Assembly: GCA_965213685.1 (NCBI GenBank)
Contig: CBDBZY010000063.1
Coordinates: 1-26,335 of the forward strand
From: a bacterium
GTDB lineage: Bacteria > UBA8248
Reading direction: 5' to 3'
DNA: 26,335 nucleotides
The first letter of the stretch is position 1. Each line of letters opens with the position of its first letter. The translations under genes and the position numbers were made by a program. Below, one piece after another: positions 9,775-21,380 of this stretch. The notes below the pieces were generated by a model. The model was given only the letters and a program-made list of their open reading frames with translations. It was not told the origin of the DNA and did no database searches.

Positions 9775-10797
9775 GTGCCGGAGAAGAAAAAGAAGAAGGC
9801 TCCCGAAGCCGCAGCCCCCAAGAAAGCGCCCCGCAGGAGAGTGGCGAGGCAGGCGGCGGACGTTCGCGGCTGGGCGCCCGGAGTCCCAAGGGAGAAGCCC
9901 AAGGGACGAACCTATGATGGCCTGCTGCGGGTCAACGCGAAGCCTAGGCGGGCGGATCGGATTTTTTTCGGCACGGGTGGGGTTCCGCATTCGGCCAGGC
10001 CGCAAACCCACCCGGAGGCGGTGCGCCGGCTCCACGCGCTGGGGCTGGGCGTCTACGAGATGGAGTTTGTGCACGGCGTCCGCATCCGGCCGCAGACGTG
10101 CGAGGAGGTGAAATCCGCCCAGGCCGAGACGGGCGTTCGCGTCACGGCGCATGGCCCCTATTACGTGAACCTGTATTCGCTCGAGGAGGAGAAGGTGGCG
10201 GCGAGCCGCAAGCGCGTGCTGGACACCGCCCGCGCACTGGCCGCGTGCGGGGGCGACGGGGCGTGCTTTCACCCGGGGTTTTATCAGAAGCGGGACCGGA
10301 AGGAGGTCTACGACTTCATCCGGAACCAGGTAGGGGAGCTCGCCGACATTCTGGAGGAGGAGGGCTGTCCGGTTCGCCTGGACCCCGAGACGACGGGCAA
10401 GGGCAGCCAGTTCGGCTCCCTCCAGGAGATCGCCGACATGGGCGGTGCCCTCCAGGACAAGAACGTCGGGCTGACGATAGACTTCGCCCACATTCACGCC
10501 CGCTCGGCCGGGGCGAACAACACCTATGAGGAGTTCGGCGCCCAGCTCGAGCTCCTGAAAGACAAGATGGGCGCGGAGGCGCTCAAGACCATGCACATTC
10601 ACCTCTCGGGCATCGCGTATTCGGACAAGGGCGAGGCGCACCATCTCGAGCTCGACGAGTCGGACATGAATTATCCGGACCTGTTCCGCGCGCTGATAGA
10701 TTTCGGGGTGGAGGGACGGGTGGTGTGCGAGAGCCCGGCCCTGGAGTATGACGCCCTCATCATGCAAAAAACATACAGAAAGCTGAACGGCGGCTAG
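9775..10797 (+). CDS. nfo: Endonuclease IV (AP endonuclease family 2 TIM barrel) with basic N-terminal extension
   Basis: FGTGGVP, MEFVHGV, HGPYYVNL, FHPGFY, PETTGKGSQFG, IDFAHIHAR, HIHLSGI, CESP; GAGGT RBS before GTG 9775 (start uncertain). Confidence 0.85.
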   Translation: MPEKKKKKAPEAAAPKKAPRRRVARQAADVRGWAPGVPREKPKGRTYDGLLRVNAKPRRADRIFFGTGGVPHSARPQTHPEAVRRLHALGLGVYEMEFVHGVRIRPQTCEEVKSAQAETGVRVTAHGPYYVNLYSLEEEKVAASRKRVLDTARALAACGGDGACFHPGFYQKRDRKEVYDFIRNQVGELADILEEEGCPVRLDPETTGKGSQFGSLQEIADMGGALQDKNVGLTIDFAHIHARSAGANNTYEEFGAQLELLKDKMGAEALKTMHIHLSGIAYSDKGEAHHLELDESDMNYPDLFRALIDFGVEGRVVCESPALEYDALIMQKTYRKLNGG

Positions 10798-10891
10798 CCC
10801 GCGCCCGTCCCTCCCCGCGGGGATTCCGCGGGCGGGCGAAGCGGGCGAGCCTCCCCCCTCCCTGTACCCGGTTCGACAAAGGAGCGTCGCC

Positions 10892-12262
10892 ATGACGATT
10901 GCAGAGGAGATCGCGGCGTTTGCCGCGGCGAGGAGTTTTGACGATCTCTCCGAGGAGATGCGCGGGCAGGCGAAGATGCTCATGCTCGACACCATCGGCT
11001 GCGCCATCGGCTCCCTGGGCGCGGCACCCGTCCGCCTCCTGCGCGCGCAGGCGGACGATTTCGGCGGCGCGCCCCGCTGCGCACTCATCGGCGGGGGGAG
11101 AACCGCGCCCGACAGGGCGGCGTTCTACAACACCGCGCTGATTCGCTACCTGGATTTCAACGACGGGTTCATGGGGAGGCTCGCCACGTCACACCCCAGC
11201 GACAACGCGGGCAGCGTGATGGCGGCGGCGGAATACGCAGACGCGAGCGGGGCGGAGTTCATGACCGCCCTTGCCGTGGCGTATGAGGTGCAGTGTCGGC
11301 TTTGCGACAGCGCGCCTTATGAGAAGAGAGGGTTTGATCAGCCCATGGCGGGTGCCTATGCCGTGGCGGCGGGCTGCGCGCGCGCCCTGGGCCTAGACGC
11401 AGGCAGGACGGCCCACGCCATCGCCCTCAGCGGGGTGCGCCAGAATCCCCTCCTCATCACGCGCACCGGCGAGATCTCCCATTGGAAGGGGTTCGCCTAC
11501 GCGGCCGCCGGGCACAGCGGGGTGCACTCGACGTTTCTGGCCATGCGCGGGGTGACCGGCCCCCTCCTGCTGGTGGAGGGTCCCTTCGGCGTTTTCGAGT
11601 CGGTGACGGGAGAGTTCGAGGTGGACTGGTCGGACGCGCGCCTGGGCAAGATGCTCGAGATCAGCGTGAAGCGCTACAACGCGGGCCTCCACTCCCAGAC
11701 GGCCATCGAGGGCGTCATCGGCATGAAGCGCGCGCACGGCTTCCGGCCCGAGGACGTCGAGGACGTCGAGATCGGAATTTACGAGCGCGCCTATTTCATC
11801 ATGGGGGGAGGGAAGGCCGGCGCGCGCGAGCACGTGCGGAACAAGGAGACGGCGGACCACAGCCTGCCCTACGTGCTCGCGGCCGCCATCATCGACGAGC
11901 AGGTTCTGCCGGCCCAATACGAGGAGGAGAGAATCCGCGCGGAGGACGTGCAGGTGCTTCTCAAGAGGGTGCGCACCACGAATTCCGACGAGATGACGGC
12001 GCGCTATCCCGCGCAATCCCCCGTCCGGATAGCCATCACCCTGAAAGACGGCGCGGTGCACGAGATGGACAAGCCCGCCTGGGAGGGGCACTTCTCCTCC
12101 CCCATGCGGTGGGAGACGGTGCGCGAGAAGTTCGAGGCACTCAGCGAGGCGCGCGCGGACGCCTCCCTGCGCGGGGAGATAGCGGACGCCGTCTCGAGGC
12201 TCGACGCCATTCGGTTCAAGGAGCTGACGGGGCTGCTGGAGAGGGTGGAGACGCCCGGGTAG
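10892..12262 (+). CDS. MmgE/PrpD family protein (2-methylcitrate dehydratase-like)
   Basis: LDTIGCAIG, RYLDFND, HPSDN, AVAYEV, KETADHSLPY; AGGAG RBS. Confidence 0.92.
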   Translation: MTIAEEIAAFAAARSFDDLSEEMRGQAKMLMLDTIGCAIGSLGAAPVRLLRAQADDFGGAPRCALIGGGRTAPDRAAFYNTALIRYLDFNDGFMGRLATSHPSDNAGSVMAAAEYADASGAEFMTALAVAYEVQCRLCDSAPYEKRGFDQPMAGAYAVAAGCARALGLDAGRTAHAIALSGVRQNPLLITRTGEISHWKGFAYAAAGHSGVHSTFLAMRGVTGPLLLVEGPFGVFESVTGEFEVDWSDARLGKMLEISVKRYNAGLHSQTAIEGVIGMKRAHGFRPEDVEDVEIGIYERAYFIMGGGKAGAREHVRNKETADHSLPYVLAAAIIDEQVLPAQYEEERIRAEDVQVLLKRVRTTNSDEMTARYPAQSPVRIAITLKDGAVHEMDKPAWEGHFSSPMRWETVREKFEALSEARADASLRGEIADAVSRLDAIRFKELTGLLERVETPG

Positions 12263-12341
12263 CGCAAAATCCTGCGCGGGCTACGCCGGGAGCGCGCCCC
12301 GCCGCCGGGACGATTCGCGCCCGTTTCATGGGAGGTCGCCG

Positions 12342-12587
12342 ATGTCGGACAGGAAAGTGACGGTCTATTCATCTTCCACATGAGCGCCATGCAGGTCGGT
12401 GAGAGCGTTTCTCTCCCATCATGGCGTGGCCTACACCGAGAAACTCGTGGATGAGGACGAGGAGGCCCTAGAGGAGTTGTTCCAACGGGCGAACATGCGG
12501 GCGGCGCCCGTGATATTCGTGGGCGACGAGAAGGTGGTCGGCTTTGATCGGGCGCGGCTCGAAGCGTTGTTGGGGATCGGCCGGTGA
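12342..12587 (+). CDS. Glutaredoxin/NrdH-like redoxin, probable selenoprotein (UxxC; Sec = TGA 12381-12383), 81 aa
   Basis: GGAGG RBS, ATG 12342, MSDRKVTVYSSST-[TGA]-APCRSVRAFLSHHGVAYTEK...AAPVIFVGDEKVVGFD; TGA sits at the first Cys of the CxxC motif. Confidence 0.88.
12384..12427 (+). promoter_or_regulatory. Putative bacterial SECIS element for the glutaredoxin UGA
   Basis: Lower stem GCGCCATG/CATGGCGT, upper stem GAGAG/CTCTC, apical loop CGTTT starting about 22 nt after UGA. Confidence 0.65.
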
Positions 12588-12883
12588 AGGAAAATGCGCG
12601 CGCGCTTCGGTGCCCCGGCTGAGGCCGGGAGGTGCCCATCCCGTGGGATGCGGAGGCGGGCGACCTGGTGGACTGCGATAACTGCGCGGGCGTGAAATTC
12701 CGCTTGGGCGCGGCGGGAGGGGCGGAAGTCCTCACCATCGTGCAGATGGTTTCATGCCCCCTTTGCGGGGAGCGTCTGCCGGTGGACGACGCGACGCCCG
12801 CCGGTGCCATCGTCGAGTGCGACGGCGAAAAACTCCGTCTCGCCAAGGCGTTCGGCGCGTTCGTCCTGGAGCGAACGCTGTAG
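12584..12883 (+). CDS. Tandem LysW-like zinc-ribbon protein, candidate selenoprotein (CxxU; TGA 12620-12622), 99 aa
   Basis: GTG overlaps the grx stop (GTGA); VKENARALRCPG-[TGA]-GREVPIPWDAEAGDLVDCDNC...CPLCGERLPVDDATPAGAIVECDG; repeat 1 CPGUG aligns with repeat 2 CPLCG. Confidence 0.72.
12637..12650 (+). promoter_or_regulatory. Putative SECIS apical hairpin for the zinc-ribbon UGA
   Basis: CATCC-CGTG-GGATG; loop begins about 19 nt after UGA and starts CGT like the glutaredoxin hairpin. Confidence 0.5.
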
Positions 12884-12899
12884 GGGGGCTCGCCCCCGC

Positions 12900-12943
12900 C
12901 CGAGGGACCCCTCGCGGGGGGTTGGCATGGCGCGGGGCGGGTG
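12900..12943 (+). repeat. Left copy of island-flanking direct repeat
   Basis: CCGAGGGACCCCTCGCGGGGGGTTGGCATGGCGCGGGGCGGGTG; matches 26214-26254 apart from homopolymer lengths. Confidence 0.85.
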
Positions 12944-13008
12944 TTGGCGGCGCGCAGTGGTTTTCTGCCCGCCCGGAAATCTTTTTTGGGTTCCGAAACC
13001 TCGTGCGG

Positions 13009-16148
<3,140 letters not shown>

Positions 16149-16149
<1 letters not shown>

Positions 16150-16634
16150 CACAGGACAAACCGGGCGCGCTCGCGGCGGAGCATTTCATAGGGGTTCATG
16201 CAACACAGGCCGAGACGGTCGCAAGCGTTCGGAATCTTGATTTTGTGGATGGTGTCAGCGAAGACTTCGTGGGTGACGACGGCACAGTCAAGAGCCAGCG
16301 CGTGCGCGACAAGAAAGCAATCGGCACCCCTTAGAAAGGTGTCGACGGCGGCCGACTTGTATTCATTGCCGTTCGCCCAATCGCTGACGGCGCGAAGCTT
16401 CGAAACCACGGCCTCGTCCGGCTTCAGAAAGAACCCGTCGCCCCGCTCCGCGGCCCACTTCGCCAGTTCGTCGTTTCCCTCTTGCAGTTCGCCCAAGACC
16501 TCCTCGACGCTGGCGACGGTGCCCGCGCCGTTCTGCTCGACCAGCCAATCCCAGAAGGCGGGGCAGAAATCGAAGCCGTAGTGCCGGTTCTTGGCCTGAA
16601 TGAACACGTTCGCGTCGATGAGATAGGCGGTCAT
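16149..16634 (-). CDS. DUF4411 family PIN-like domain protein
   Basis: [31 protein letters not shown]...[22 protein letters not shown]; ATGA overlap with the upstream gene. Confidence 0.88.
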
Positions 16635-17788
16635 TCCATCACCCCGACTTCGCGCCCGATATTGTTGAAGGTCTCGGTCTTCTTGACGCCCAACATCCGG
16701 AACGCATCCCGATAGAGGGTCCGCCCTTCGAGCGTGCTCACGACCAGTGCGCGCGCGAACCGCCGCCCGACCCGTGCGACCGTCGTGCGATAGAAGTCGC
16801 CGCCCGCGCGGCGCGCCTTGACGAGCTTCCGCAGACGTTCGTTCTCTTGTGCCCATTCTTTGTCAAAACGAGCGCGGGTGATCCGGCCCGCATCGAGCAG
16901 GCGGCGCAATATGACCAGCGTGCTGACCTTGTAGAGGCCCGCCAGTCGGGGCAGCGCGTCCGGCGGCGATTCGTTCGGTTGCAGATCGGATCGCAAGGCT
17001 TCCAGCGGCACCAGAAACTCCGCTGCCACCGCGTTGCACCACACCTCCTCGCGCCGGAAGCCCGACGCCGGCGCCGCGCCGAGATTCGACAGAGCGGACA
17101 CGCCAAGCCAGATATGCGCAAGCTCATGGGCGAGCGTGAACATCTGCGCCGCTTTCGTGTCCGCGCCGTTGACGAAGATTAGCGGTGCGAGGGGATCCGG
17201 CAGGGCGAAACCGCGAAACTCCTCGGGATTGAGACGGCGGCGGTTGTTGTTTGCTACCACGCCATTGATCATGACGAGGACGCCGGCCTCCTCGGCCTGG
17301 CGGATAAACGGGCGAAGGGCGTCGGGCCCCGTCGAGTGCTTCCGGCGGGCGGCCAGATCGAAACCCAAAACCTCTCGCATATCGGCCGCGACAGTTTCAG
17401 GGGATGTCTTGGTCGAGGTGCTGCCGACGAAGCCGAGAGCCGGCTCGCCGGCGGCACGAGCGAAATCCCGATACCAGCTCTGCCGTTCCTGGCAGGCGTA
17501 GATCGTGTCCAGCAAGTCCGGGCTGGGCCGCGTGACCGCGTGTCCGGCGAGGGTGCGGAAGTCCGGAATGGGAAGGGCTTCCTCCGGCGGTTCCGAGAGG
17601 AACAGGTAACCGATTGGCACATGGACCGCGCGCGCAAACGCCTCCAATTGCTTCAGGGTGGGCTGGACGTCGCCGTTCTCCCATTCGGGCAGTTTTTTGA
17701 ATTTTTTCGCCGCCAGAGATTCTTGCCGGATGTCGGCGCGCTCGCGCGCCCAGCGGAGAAGATCGGGATTGACGGGGACGCGGATCAT
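16631..17788 (-). CDS. XRE HTH fused to ImmA/IrrE-family metallopeptidase
   Basis: N-terminal LLRWARER..WENGDVQPTLKQLEAFA; FRGFAL..IFVNGADTKAAQMFTLAHELAH (HExxH); CNAVAAEFLVP. Confidence 0.92.
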   Translation of the reverse strand: MIRVPVNPDLLRWARERADIRQESLAAKKFKKLPEWENGDVQPTLKQLEAFARAVHVPIGYLFLSEPPEEALPIPDFRTLAGHAVTRPSPDLLDTIYACQERQSWYRDFARAAGEPALGFVGSTSTKTSPETVAADMREVLGFDLAARRKHSTGPDALRPFIRQAEEAGVLVMINGVVANNNRRRLNPEEFRGFALPDPLAPLIFVNGADTKAAQMFTLAHELAHIWLGVSALSNLGAAPASGFRREEVWCNAVAAEFLVPLEALRSDLQPNESPPDALPRLAGLYKVSTLVILRRLLDAGRITRARFDKEWAQENERLRKLVKARRAGGDFYRTTVARVGRRFARALVVSTLEGRTLYRDAFRMLGVKKTETFNNIGREVGVME

Positions 17789-18624
17789 GGACGCTCTCCC
17801 GCCAGGTTCGCCAGAGCGGCCTTCAGGACTTGGAAGCAGACTTTGGCGGTGTGTTCATCCGGCGCAAAGCCCGAGATCATCTGCTCGTGTGGGTGGATGT
17901 AGTTTCGGAAATTGCGCAAGCCGTGCCCGAACTGCTTGATGTCGGGCTTCAGAACGCCGACTTCGTCAGCAACGTCGATCAACTGCGCAAGGCTCCATTC
18001 ATGGAAGGGTTTCGGCGATTCTTTCGCTTTCGCTGTTTTCGGCGTCGCATTCGCCTGATTGAAGCGCGCTGGATCCTGCCTGGCTACGCCAAGCAGCAAA
18101 GCTTCCAACACGCTGCCGCACAGGAATATCACGGACAAATGAGCACCTGCGTCAAGCACGACGCACGCCTCCTTAATCCGTGCTTCGATTATTGGCACGA
18201 CCTGCGCGTCAATCGGCATTTTTTGAATTTTCGGAACCGCGAACTCGCGCGCCAGAAACTCGGCTTCGGTCGTGGCGGGGCGAGGGACGGCAGATTGACC
18301 GGTCAGCCGTGCGACGATGCCGCGCGCCTTTTCCAGCAATTTCTTGTCCGGGTCCTTCTTTGCGAGGTCGCAGTATGTCTCATAGGAGTCCAGCATCTCG
18401 GACAGCACCTTGCCTACCAGATCGTCGGGTTCCAATGTCCAAAACGCACGGAGCTTTTTCGCCTTTGACGTTCCATAAGTCTTATATTTTTGCCCGTGGA
18501 CGTCGACCTTGTATTTAAGAAAAAAATCGCCAAACGTAGCGTCCGTGAAGTCGAGAACATAGCCGCCGCTCATTTCGAGGAGTTCTTCGAGGTAGCGCTT
18601 ATCGCTACTCGTCAACGAACTCAT
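17785..18624 (-). CDS. Putative defence protein: Abi-associated N-terminal domain plus HEPN-like C-terminal domain
   Basis: N-term MSGGYVLDFTD..GTSKAKKLRAFW; C-term CGSVLEALL..WSLAQLID..LRNFRNYIHP (R-x-H HEPN-type motif); lower GC; coupled ATGA overlaps on both sides. Confidence 0.65.
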   Translation of the reverse strand: MSSLTSSDKRYLEELLEMSGGYVLDFTDATFGDFFLKYKVDVHGQKYKTYGTSKAKKLRAFWTLEPDDLVGKVLSEMLDSYETYCDLAKKDPDKKLLEKARGIVARLTGQSAVPRPATTEAEFLAREFAVPKIQKMPIDAQVVPIIEARIKEACVVLDAGAHLSVIFLCGSVLEALLLGVARQDPARFNQANATPKTAKAKESPKPFHEWSLAQLIDVADEVGVLKPDIKQFGHGLRNFRNYIHPHEQMISGFAPDEHTAKVCFQVLKAALANLAGERP

Positions 18625-19830
18625 GAGATCACCTCCCCCGCCTCGGCGAGGCGGATTTCGCCCGAGATGAGTTTTGGAAGGAGGAGGTCGCGGGCCTCGG
18701 AGAGCGTAAGGCTTTCATTAGAATGAAGCCTGAATTGCTCGAAGAGGGGTCCAACCACCTTCTCAAAGGCCACTGCCACATCAGAACCAGATGCCGGAAA
18801 CGGTATCGCTTTCAGGTTTTTCTGGTTCAGCTTTGGTTGAACGGTGCCGGTAACGTATGGAGTTATGTCTGTTTGTTGAAGGAAACACAACAACATCTCA
18901 TTCGAGATGCCTTTTCCCCTGAGAACATGAGCATGGTTGTTTGCCCAGAATTGACCCCAAACATATTGCGTAAAGGGTTTTCCGTCCGGTTTGGTGACCG
19001 ATCCATCTTCGCCGAGTAGGATGTGAACTCCTTCAAACAAGTAGTCCTCTACGTAATCTATCACTCCGGCCGCGCCATGATATGGATAGGGCCCTTGGCG
19101 TTGCTCGCGTTCTCGGGATGATAGCGGGATGCGTTTAGAATCGAGGATTTCGATCTGATCCCCTAGCAGCGAAACCTCCCACCCCGCCGGCTTGCCCGCA
19201 TCGTCCAGTGTGTCGGGAAAGAGCTCCCAGAGTTCGGGGGCGAGGTAGGGGGGGCGGCCCTCCATCTTGGCGCGGGTGGGGCCGAAATCCACGAACCAGT
19301 CCCGGAAGATCGCCCGCGCCATCTCCTCCAGCGTCTCGTTCATCCGCCGGTTCAGGTCGATCTTGTCGTCCAGTGTGCCCAGCACGTGTGCGATGGCGCG
19401 TTGTTCGGGGAGAGGGGGAAGAAGTATTCCGTGGCGTGCCGAATAATCCCACTTTGCTCGGGGCATGCGTGTTCCTTCAGACCCGGAGACTGAATGTTCG
19501 ATGAATTGCGGCGAGGCCACACAGTAGTGAAGAAATCTCTGATCTATGCCTTCCTTGGCACGGATGACCCAAATGTCGGTTGAACAAATACCATTGAATG
19601 GCGCCTCGATAACCTTGCGAAAGTATGGCCGGAGCTTTCCGAACAAAGTATCGCCCTTCTTGAAGCGTGACTTCGTACTCGTCACATCACTTGCTTGCCC
19701 ATGCTTGAGTAGGGATAAGGTGTTTTCTCCAATATGCTCAAGGCCGATATAGAGCATGTTCTCTGCATCAGATGGAGATACTGTTTCGCGGATTAAATCC
19801 GCGCACTCTTCAAGCGTTACCTCCTCCCAC

Positions 19831-19838
<8 letters not shown>
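18621..19838 (-). CDS. hsdS: Type I restriction specificity subunit
   Basis: Two low-GC TRDs separated by a high-GC conserved spacer ([42 protein letters not shown]); C-term [14 protein letters not shown]; ATG 19838 overlaps the hsdM end. Confidence 0.94.

Positions 19839-21380
<1,542 letters not shown>

Follow-up and report, generated by a model that had tools for sequence, protein, structure and literature searches.

A candidate two-gene selenoprotein module pairing a glutaredoxin with a tandem LysW-like zinc ribbon in a UBA8248 bacterium, and its possible role in soft-metal handling

We analyzed a stretch of 26,335 nucleotides from a bacterium of the GTDB lineage UBA8248 (GenBank assembly GCA_965213685.1, contig CBDBZY010000063.1, forward strand; this whole stretch is called the window below) and found that a gene at 12584-12883 very probably carries an in-frame TGA, at 12620-12622, that is decoded as selenocysteine (Sec, U) to give a real product of 99 residues. 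The predicted protein consists of two LysW-like zinc ribbons in tandem, and it is likely that the family has so far not been described as a selenoprotein family. Directly upstream lies a second selenoprotein gene, for a glutaredoxin-like protein. We lean toward the view that the two form a translationally coupled module in which the first ribbon would bind and hand off a soft metal, most likely Hg(II), serviced by the Sec-glutaredoxin. The pairing with the Sec-glutaredoxin and the link to mer-type operons are the more interesting part of this result, more so than the new family itself. The features of the module in the window are as follows.

12330-12335, plus strand: Shine-Dalgarno-like GGGAGG, 6 nt 5' of the ATG of the glutaredoxin-like gene (read from the sequence only).
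12342-12587, plus strand: gene for a glutaredoxin-like selenoprotein of 81 aa with T-U-A-P-C as its active site, ending at TGA 12585-12587; Pfam Glutaredoxin.
12381-12383, plus strand: TGA taken as a selenocysteine codon, U14 in the glutaredoxin-like protein; TGA in 26 of 26 loci of the phylum and kept in contigs of four runs.
12401-12415, plus strand: hairpin of the glutaredoxin-like gene resembling a selenocysteine insertion sequence (SECIS), GAGAG / loop / CUCUC, 17 nt after the UGA (RNAalifold, 26 loci).
12572-12576, plus strand: Shine-Dalgarno-like GGGGA, 7 nt 5' of GTG 12584 (from the letters alone).
12584-12883, plus strand: tandem LysW-like zinc-ribbon selenoprotein gene, 99 aa plus TAG 12881-12883 (read-through frame, alignment and AlphaFold 2 (AF2) model).
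12611-12685, plus strand: ligand codons of the first ribbon, C10 12611-12613, U13 12620-12622, C31 12674-12676 and C34 12683-12685 (invariant columns of alignment A1; Pfam Zn_ribbon_LysW over residues 9-34).
12620-12622, plus strand: TGA taken as a selenocysteine codon, U13 at the end of the first knuckle, C-P-G-U (TGA or Cys in 26 aligned loci).
12636-12652, plus strand: SECIS-like hairpin of ribbon site 13, stem 12636-12641 / 12646-12652, loop CGUG 12642-12645 (RNAalifold on 15 Sec forms).
12755-12820, plus strand: second ribbon, C58 12755-12757, C61 12764-12766 and C79 12818-12820 (alignment A1; hidden Markov model (HMM) of residues 56-98 against LysW 3vpb_E).

The start codon of the ribbon gene, GTG 12584-12586, overlaps the stop codon of the upstream gene, TGA 12585-12587, in a GTGA junction. 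Reading through the internal TGA as U yields VKENARALRCPGUGREVPIPWDAEAGDLVDCDNCAG...CPLCGERLPVDDATPAGAIVECDG...ERTL, 99 residues, with the ligand pattern C10-P-G-U13 ... C31-D-N-C34 in the first ribbon and C58-x2-C61 ... C79 in the second. The initial annotation had proposed this coupling, a frame running through TGA 12620-12622 to 12883, and a repeat in which CPG-U-G...CDNC is followed by CPLCG...CDG; the sequence confirms each of these. Under table 11 the gene is called as 12632-12883 alone (83 aa, starting at GTG 12632), and the GAGG that had been pointed out before this GTG is indeed present at 12621-12624. Residue 79 (codon 12818-12820) is Cys in the window protein and His, in the context E-H-D-G, in at least 90% of its relatives; more distant Cys forms have H-C-G or C-C-G in this region, so the ligand set of the second ribbon differs between clades.

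An open in-frame extension by itself proves nothing in a GC-rich genome, and the case for Sec rests on comparison. We searched 61 related genomes in six frames and obtained a match in 27, of which 26 loci, all from the same phylum, were kept; one weak match (L050, E 0.009) was dropped as spurious. The full 99-residue frame was kept in all 26. Residue 13 was TGA in 15 loci and Cys in 11, and nothing else. The last residue of the other knuckle, residue 34, was TGA in 10 loci and Cys in 16. Nine loci had Sec at both sites, six (including the window) had U13 with C34, one (L027) had C13 with U34, and ten had Cys at both; across the 26 sequences Sec was restricted to these two symmetric ligand positions. 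The invariant columns of alignment A1 include C10, C/U13, C31, C/U34, C58 and C61, and H79 is nearly invariant. Conservation extends to both sides of the TGA: C10 is invariant and P11 is found in at least 90% of loci upstream, while P20, C31 and C34 are conserved downstream. In 25 of 26 loci a start codon precedes C10 by 2-13 codons, and in 18 of 26 the distance is exactly nine; in L044 alone no start codon upstream of C10 was found. On a tree of the concatenated glutaredoxin and ribbon proteins, with sites 13 and 34 masked, Sec and Cys exchanged at least five times at site 13 and three times at site 34, at least two of the latter being forced by well-supported branches. The gene was present in 30 of 51 species genomes of the phylum. 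The database gene calls of the relatives are fragments of 63-71 aa that start after the TGAs and omit the whole first ribbon. A pattern search of genome contigs with A1 returned only five loci, as the pattern requires Cys at site 34.

The nucleotide sequence itself was also stable between data sets. Logan contigs of three runs from one study, possibly the source of the assembly, showed no difference over 12300-12900. In another study one contig was about 97% identical, with 17 differences; both TGAs were kept, ACG replaced GTG 12632, and the changes upstream of the TGA were two synonymous and two conservative ones. Together, the Sec/Cys pairs, the conserved flanks and the second-study variant form the classical signature of a Sec/Cys family and exclude sequencing error, a pseudogene and the short ORF (open reading frame). 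These results also answer the doubts that had accompanied the initial annotation. Contigs of four runs in two studies have TGA, not TGC or TGT; homologues do not begin at GTG 12632, since C10-P11 and an upstream start codon are conserved; relatives are not uniformly Cys; and every one of the 26 loci has Cys or TGA at residue 13, as had been predicted for homologues. We also considered and rejected a different genetic code, in which TGA would generally stand for an amino acid. The glutaredoxin gene itself terminates at a TGA in 20 of 26 loci, and Cys is the only residue found opposite the recoded TGAs.

The genome holds the machinery that Sec decoding needs, the presence of which had been left to be checked. 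SelA (501.6 bits), SelB (369.8 bits, over its cut-off) and tRNA-Sec (78.6 bits, cut-off 47) were all found, together with SelD, for which one piece scored 172 bits and whose N-terminus, ...GGUGSK, is itself a Sec form. The genome spans 7.97 Mb in 71 contigs and is 94% complete. Its size compares with 2.9-4.6 Mb in 22 species genomes of the same genus, and the estimated contamination is 3.7%; the difference may reflect a genome that is larger or two strains binned together.

The glutaredoxin-like gene and the Sec at the second knuckle of the relatives were both absent from the initial annotation. The upstream protein scored 55.9 bits against Pfam Glutaredoxin (PF00462, cut-off 22.9), with Sec at the first active-site position; it fell under the cut-off of every NCBIfam glutaredoxin model, the best being a YruB-family model (70.7 against 88.55). 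In each of the 26 phylum loci the ribbon gene was immediately preceded by a U-x-x-C glutaredoxin gene, the two overlapping by 4 nt in 20 and separated by a gap of 15-19 nt in the other six. One 125-aa protein of the representative library (P0036) joins the C-terminal part of a glutaredoxin (…TGRLAVPVIL) to a ribbon protein that begins with its first strand; a miscall at a short gene junction is the probable cause, and the protein shows the same gene pair in another lineage.

Bacterial SECIS elements have an apical loop about 16-37 nt from the UGA, with a G in the loop. The hairpin described in the initial annotation, CATCC (12637-12641), CGTG (12642-12645) and GGATG (12646-12650), is present, and the distance of about 19 nt given for it holds for the apical loop, which starts 19 nt after the A of the TGA, and not for the foot of the stem. 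It was in register in 13 of 15 Sec forms and shifted by one base in the other two. The 56 nt after TGA 12620-12622 gave a folding z-score of -1.12, with 27 of 200 shuffles as good, and the 56 nt after TGA 12381-12383 in the glutaredoxin gene of the window gave -2.14. The alignments of the three sites gave the following.

Ribbon site 13 hairpin, columns 17-33 after the UGA: 93.3% of cells paired, against 22-53% for slid partners; covariation matched by 59 of 500 shuffles.
Ribbon site 34 hairpin, columns 16-36 after the UGA: 95.6% of cells paired, against 46-64% for slid partners; covariation matched by 89 of 500 shuffles.
Glutaredoxin hairpin, columns 21-35 after the UGA: 94.4% of cells paired, against 30-83% for slid partners; covariation matched by 0 of 500 shuffles.

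Convincing covariation was thus confined to the glutaredoxin hairpin, where an A-U pair changes to G-C in a double change seen in five distinct rows. At site 34 the best hairpin averaged -16.1 kcal/mol in Sec forms and -12.4 in Cys forms, a comparison confounded by kinship. Two of the Sec forms, L045 and L046, differ in their peptide; they had a strong hairpin one base out of register, and their Cys sister L044 had a weaker one there, a contrast that is suggestive only.

Both halves of the ribbon protein resemble LysW, as had been proposed. With C standing for U, the protein matched Pfam Zn_ribbon_LysW (PF21344) in two stretches at 36.5 bits (cut-off 27), and a soil Cys form scored 31.6 against the same cut-off. 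An HMM of residues 56-98 found Sulfolobus tokodaii LysW (3vpb_E) at E 1.6e-5. The AF2 model of the 99-residue protein was all beta, with a mean predicted local distance difference test score of 84.7, and in Foldseek 3vpb_E was its sole meaningful match (probability 1.00, TM-score 0.81 normalized to target length, E 0.068). The protein was under the cut-off of every NCBIfam model, missing those for LysW carriers (NF041070, 47.9 against 75; TIGR01206, 15.4 against 53.2), for dual CXXC small (seleno)proteins (NF041197, 15.6 against 40) and for FmdB-family zinc ribbons (TIGR02605, 11.3 against 31.3). A profile search of 1.84 billion representatives gave 90 matches with E at or below 1e-3, 39 at or below 1e-10 and 3 at or below 1e-30, many of them complete all-Cys proteins, 94-105 residues long, with (H/C)CG at the end of the second ribbon. 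Among the longer matches, 10 of the 15 over 170 aa were scanned with Pfam and contained repeated ribbons, a fragment of an insertion sequence and a piece of sirohaem synthase, with no informative domain fusion found in these ten. The ESM Atlas contributed nothing beyond generic LysW-like clusters (about 94 aa), most frequent in Rokuibacteriota and Methylomirabilota, which we treat as a lead only.

The initial annotation did not recall the family as described, and our searches agree. Besides the NCBIfam result, the family is not among the 119 prokaryotic selenoprotein families of Table 1 of a 2026 review (PMC13188914), and none listed there carries PF21344. No description of the family was found in the literature searched, on selenoproteins, zinc ribbons, LysW and mer operons; supplements such as the family list of BSepDB, outside that scope, might name it, and the families of Haft and co-workers were compared via NCBIfam. 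In the BSepDB paper (PMC13326102), records labelled UBA8248 / Nitrospinota are among those with the largest selenoproteomes.

We examined the context of the module in larger loci for 14 relatives and in shorter loci for the rest. In all 12 other genomes of the window's genus, the next gene on the same strand was a thioredoxin reductase matching the TrxB equivalog (TIGR01292, 362.5 against 343.45). Outside the genus, genes resembling MerE, MerT or MerR lay directly downstream on the same strand in 15 of 17 genomes, the MerT genes scoring 38.7 in Pfam (cut-off 32.9). Two genomes outside the genus had a class-I flavoprotein disulfide reductase downstream (MerA model, 302 against 454), and the most divergent loci had two AhpC/TSA-redoxin genes. 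One locus (L094) has the order ribbon, MerT, flavoprotein, MerR-like, TrxB, so the adjacency to TrxB in the window's genus may be a remnant left after loss of mer-like genes.

A second lineage came from metagenome contigs. A scan with the all-Cys subfamily (alignment A7) matched at least 600 stretches, of which at least 523 were confirmed and 80 loci kept. The glutaredoxin gene was upstream of the ribbon gene in 66 of 66 soil loci with at least 260 nt of upstream DNA. UxxC was seen in 68 of 75 glutaredoxin matches, the other seven ending before the site; the remaining 5 of the 80 loci had too little upstream DNA. All 77 ribbon genes located had Cys at both sites. The operon order was merR (divergent in the locus described next), then merB-grx-ribbon-merF-merT-merP(UxxU). 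In L117, for example, MerR on the opposite strand was followed by MerB (62 bits against 27), the Sec-glutaredoxin, the ribbon, MerF (43.5 against 24.3), a MerT-like protein below cut-off and an HMA protein. The last (L117 3404-3709, plus strand) is HMA/MerP-like, contains G-M-T-U-G-A-U with two Sec, and passes NF041115 (106.5 against 95). With one Sec in the glutaredoxin and two in the HMA protein, the soil operons have three Sec codons in two genes beside an all-Cys ribbon protein. The tblastn counts among eligible soil loci were as follows.

MerR: 38 of 40.
MerB: 46 of 47.
MerF: 46 of 72.
MerT-like: 63 of 65.
MerP-like: 56 of 58.

From this we propose the following mechanism. SelB and tRNA-Sec would decode UGA 12620-12622, a step in which the hairpin at 12636-12652 probably assists. 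Sec13 would join C10, C31 and C34 in the four-ligand site of ribbon 1, of which residue 34 is also Sec in relatives; in zinc-ribbon/rubredoxin geometry the two Sec positions are symmetric and probably exposed ligands. The resulting site, two thiolates with one or two selenolates, would suit a soft metal, most likely Hg(II), which it would take up in the cytoplasm, likely from MerB or the Mer transporters, and pass on in the manner of the MerA N-terminal domain or MerP. The co-translated glutaredoxin-like protein, with Sec at its attacking position (U-A-P-C), would exchange with or reduce the ribbon 1 site, and in the window's genus it would be fed by the thioredoxin reductase of the neighboring gene. 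A Sec-redoxin dedicated to a Sec-containing partner is the logic we propose. There are precedents for parts of such a scheme: PMC8261052 cites a glutaredoxin-dependent MerA-like enzyme of Synechocystis, and PMC13188914 lists UxxU metal-binding and MerT-type selenoproteins. The data show the frame, the Sec/Cys pairs, the decoding machinery, the class of fold and the linkage of the genes; metal binding, contact between the two proteins and the direction of transfer are what we infer. Gene context favors a metal role for Sec over a redox switch. We put a metal-handling role of the ribbon protein at about even, and mercury specifically as the metal somewhat lower.

Several observations weigh against this reading. 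At both ribbon sites covariation was weak, the real values being equalled in the 59 and 89 shuffles given above. Compared with synonymous recodings, the 48 nt after each ribbon site gave about equal z-scores in Sec and Cys forms, and the best site 13 hairpin averaged -10.0 kcal/mol in Sec forms and -12.1 in Cys forms. An Rfam scan of 12300-12900 gave only two matches, at chance level. The ribbon-gene hairpins are largely encoded by the conserved peptide and are not distinguishable from background; because they do not separate Sec from Cys forms, the Sec call is carried by the comparative data, with which a SECIS is compatible. The SelD gene (contig C31, about 101000-102300, minus strand) reads in at least four frame pieces, which could be decay and not assembly error. 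A nicotinate phosphoribosyltransferase gene on contig C33 is likewise split over four frames; with both genes frame-split, either the assembly is indel-rich or genes are decaying. On the side of function, the MerE-like genes of the phylum are a weak assignment (41.7 against 80, below cut-off), one MerT-like gene is also below cut-off, and the MerR-like regulators fall short of the MerR, CadR and CueR cut-offs, with similar scores on all three models. The window genome, 94% complete as it is, gave no match to MerT or MerB, although the MerB search matched in no control genome either, and its best MerA-like match reached 366 bits against a cut-off of 454; with none of the three recognizable, the module sits in an organism without recognizable mer genes. 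Finally, the 80 soil loci are close kin, 61-92% identical to the query, and so count as about one lineage.

The main rival, which we judge unlikely, keeps the same selenoprotein and gives it a purely redox function as a carrier. In ribbon 1 the C-x-x-U pairs would cycle between selenol/thiol and selenenylsulfide (diselenide in two-Sec forms) in a chain from NADPH through thioredoxin reductase, Sec-glutaredoxin and ribbon protein to an oxidized substrate, and metal would be only structural or would act as a redox-released switch. The TrxB gene directly downstream in all 12 same-genus genomes and in several others fits this scheme, as do the Sec at the attacking position of the partner redoxin in every locus, the AhpC/TSA-redoxin genes of the most divergent loci and the lack of recognizable mer genes in the window genome; moreover, most CxxU selenoproteins in Table 1 of PMC13188914 are taken as redox proteins. 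Against it, the order in L094 allows the TrxB adjacency to be a remnant, mer-type operons enclose the module in the soil lineage and in 15 of the 17 genomes from outside the genus, and all four ligand positions of ribbon 1 are invariably Cys or Sec, as in a metal site.

Quite improbable, in our view, is that Sec is neutral: ribbon 1 would then be an ordinary structural zinc site, Sec would drift in and out because the lineage decodes UGA as Sec easily, and the job of the protein would lie elsewhere, for example as an adaptor. The frequent interchange of Sec and Cys on the tree would be expected under drift, and the uniformly Cys soil relatives (77 of 77) and hairpins largely set by the conserved peptide agree with it. 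Records related to the phylum are also among the largest known selenoproteomes according to PMC13326102. What speaks against drift is that Sec is found only at the two symmetric ligand positions in 26 sequences, that the changes recur at least five times at site 13 and at least twice at site 34, and that no locus has a partner redoxin without Sec. We also count against neutrality that decoding Sec is expensive and that known families place it at functional residues.

We rejected, as very improbable, a LysW-type amino-group carrier, in which an ATP-grasp ligase would attach an amino acid to the C-terminal Glu as happens in lysine/arginine synthesis via LysW: the LysW-like fold of both halves and the ...P-x-E or ...V-E ends of 12 same-genus homologues would suit it, but the window protein ends in ERTL (the carrier tail being absent, as the initial annotation had stated), the tails of other clades are unrelated, the NF041070 and TIGR01206 cut-offs were missed, and no ATP-grasp or Lys/Arg biosynthesis gene was seen among the neighbors scanned. 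Equally remote, and rejected, is a TGA that is a true stop, an error or a mark of a pseudogene, with the 83-residue ORF from GTG 12632 as the product and the stretch before it untranslated: the table 11 call with its GAGG, the frameshifts elsewhere in the assembly and the insignificance of the window hairpin on its own stand beside a codon that is TGA in 15 genomes and Cys in 11 with C10-P11 conserved before it, a GTG that is ACG in the second-study variant and Ile or other residues in relatives, a product that would lose half of the invariant ligands, and a sequence identical in the contigs of the three runs of one study (possibly the assembly source).

Around the module, the window contains genes of other kinds. 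Upstream lie genes for a DUF1015 protein, a GTPase, a TIM-barrel protein and an MmgE/PrpD protein; a scan of 10700-13200 for promoters and terminators found none. Downstream, on the opposite strand, is a type I restriction-modification island at 13009-19979.

13009-16152, minus strand: HsdR.
16149-16856, minus strand: DUF4411.
16631-17788, minus strand: IrrE/M78 peptidase.
17785-18624, minus strand: ORF, no family given.
18621-19979, minus strand: HsdS.

The island occupies the place held by thioredoxin reductase in the 12 same-genus genomes. We did not find the TrxB orthologue in the window genome; other genes stand at the end of contig C63, and C33 starts within the gene that comes next in the syntenic order. 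Insertions were also seen in relatives. In L085-L089 and L091, about 1 kb of DNA with low GC content at third codon positions, holding two ORFs of about 130-170 aa, separates the ribbon gene from trxB (about +340 to +1370 nt from the ribbon start); it is absent in L092 and L093 and looks like a small mobile insertion. In L095 an insertion sequence with an rve integrase (10615-11463, plus strand) lies between the MerT-like gene and the flavoprotein reductase, and in L098 (8859-9440, plus strand) a MerT-like N-terminus runs into a MerR-like ORF, as if the two had been joined by deletion.

A bolder form of the proposal, possible but doubtful, is that the Sec-glutaredoxin and the tandem ribbon are unrecognized core components of selenium-dependent mercury or organomercury detoxification. 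The bis-selenolate/thiolate site of the ribbon would capture Hg(II) from MerB or from MerT/MerE/MerF, and the Sec-redoxin, fed by thioredoxin reductase or by a MerA-like flavoprotein that lacks the N-terminal domain, would resolve it. If this were true, in a phylum rich in selenoproteins and in lineages widespread in soil (523 or more metagenome loci) the ribbon and Sec-redoxin would take over from NmerA, or even from a portion of MerA. The databases hold the family only as hypothetical proteins of 63-71 residues because gene callers drop the whole first ribbon, and with its full frame it would add a selenoprotein family of unusual architecture, a LysW-type zinc ribbon with one or two Sec at metal-ligand positions. 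A strictly conserved pair of Sec-glutaredoxin and ribbon genes stands in mer-type operons of two distant lineages with no mercury-resistance role assigned to it, and offers a testable candidate for Hg(II) handling in cells without full MerA/NmerA. Close relatives with Sec and Cys forms of both positions also make it a natural case for comparing selenolate with thiolate ligation.

The closest known system in fold is the LysW/ArgW carrier (PF21344; 3vpb_E). Both halves of the ribbon protein have its globular zinc-ribbon fold, and the second half keeps the C-x2-C ... E-H pattern of 3vpb_E. LysW/ArgW proteins have a conserved acidic C-terminal tail ending in Glu. The protein described here differs in having two ribbons in tandem where LysW has one, Sec in its knuckles, no conserved acidic carrier tail, and redoxin and mer-like neighbors in place of Lys/Arg enzymes. 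Like the FmdB-family selenoprotein (TIGR02605, UxxU) and NF041197, both of which appear in Table 1 of PMC13188914, it is a small Cys-knuckle protein in which knuckle Cys is replaced by Sec; here, however, the pattern is CxxU ... CxxU, with Sec last in each of two knuckles, and not UxxU in one. With NF041115, MerP and the N-terminal HMA domain of MerA it shares the character of a small protein offering Cys or Sec to a soft metal in mer-type operons, and a member of NF041115 shares the soil operons with the ribbon gene. Those proteins have a ferredoxin-like HMA fold and two ligands, whereas the ribbon protein has a zinc ribbon, four ligands and no signal peptide. As for the partner, a Clostridium Sec glutaredoxin is reportedly paired with a Sec-MsrA substrate ('Tandem use of selenocysteine'); the partner here is a zinc-ribbon protein and not an enzyme. 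The upstream gene itself shares the UxxC glutaredoxin fold of the selenoprotein glutaredoxins (PF00462), a family experimentally verified according to Table 1 of PMC13188914.

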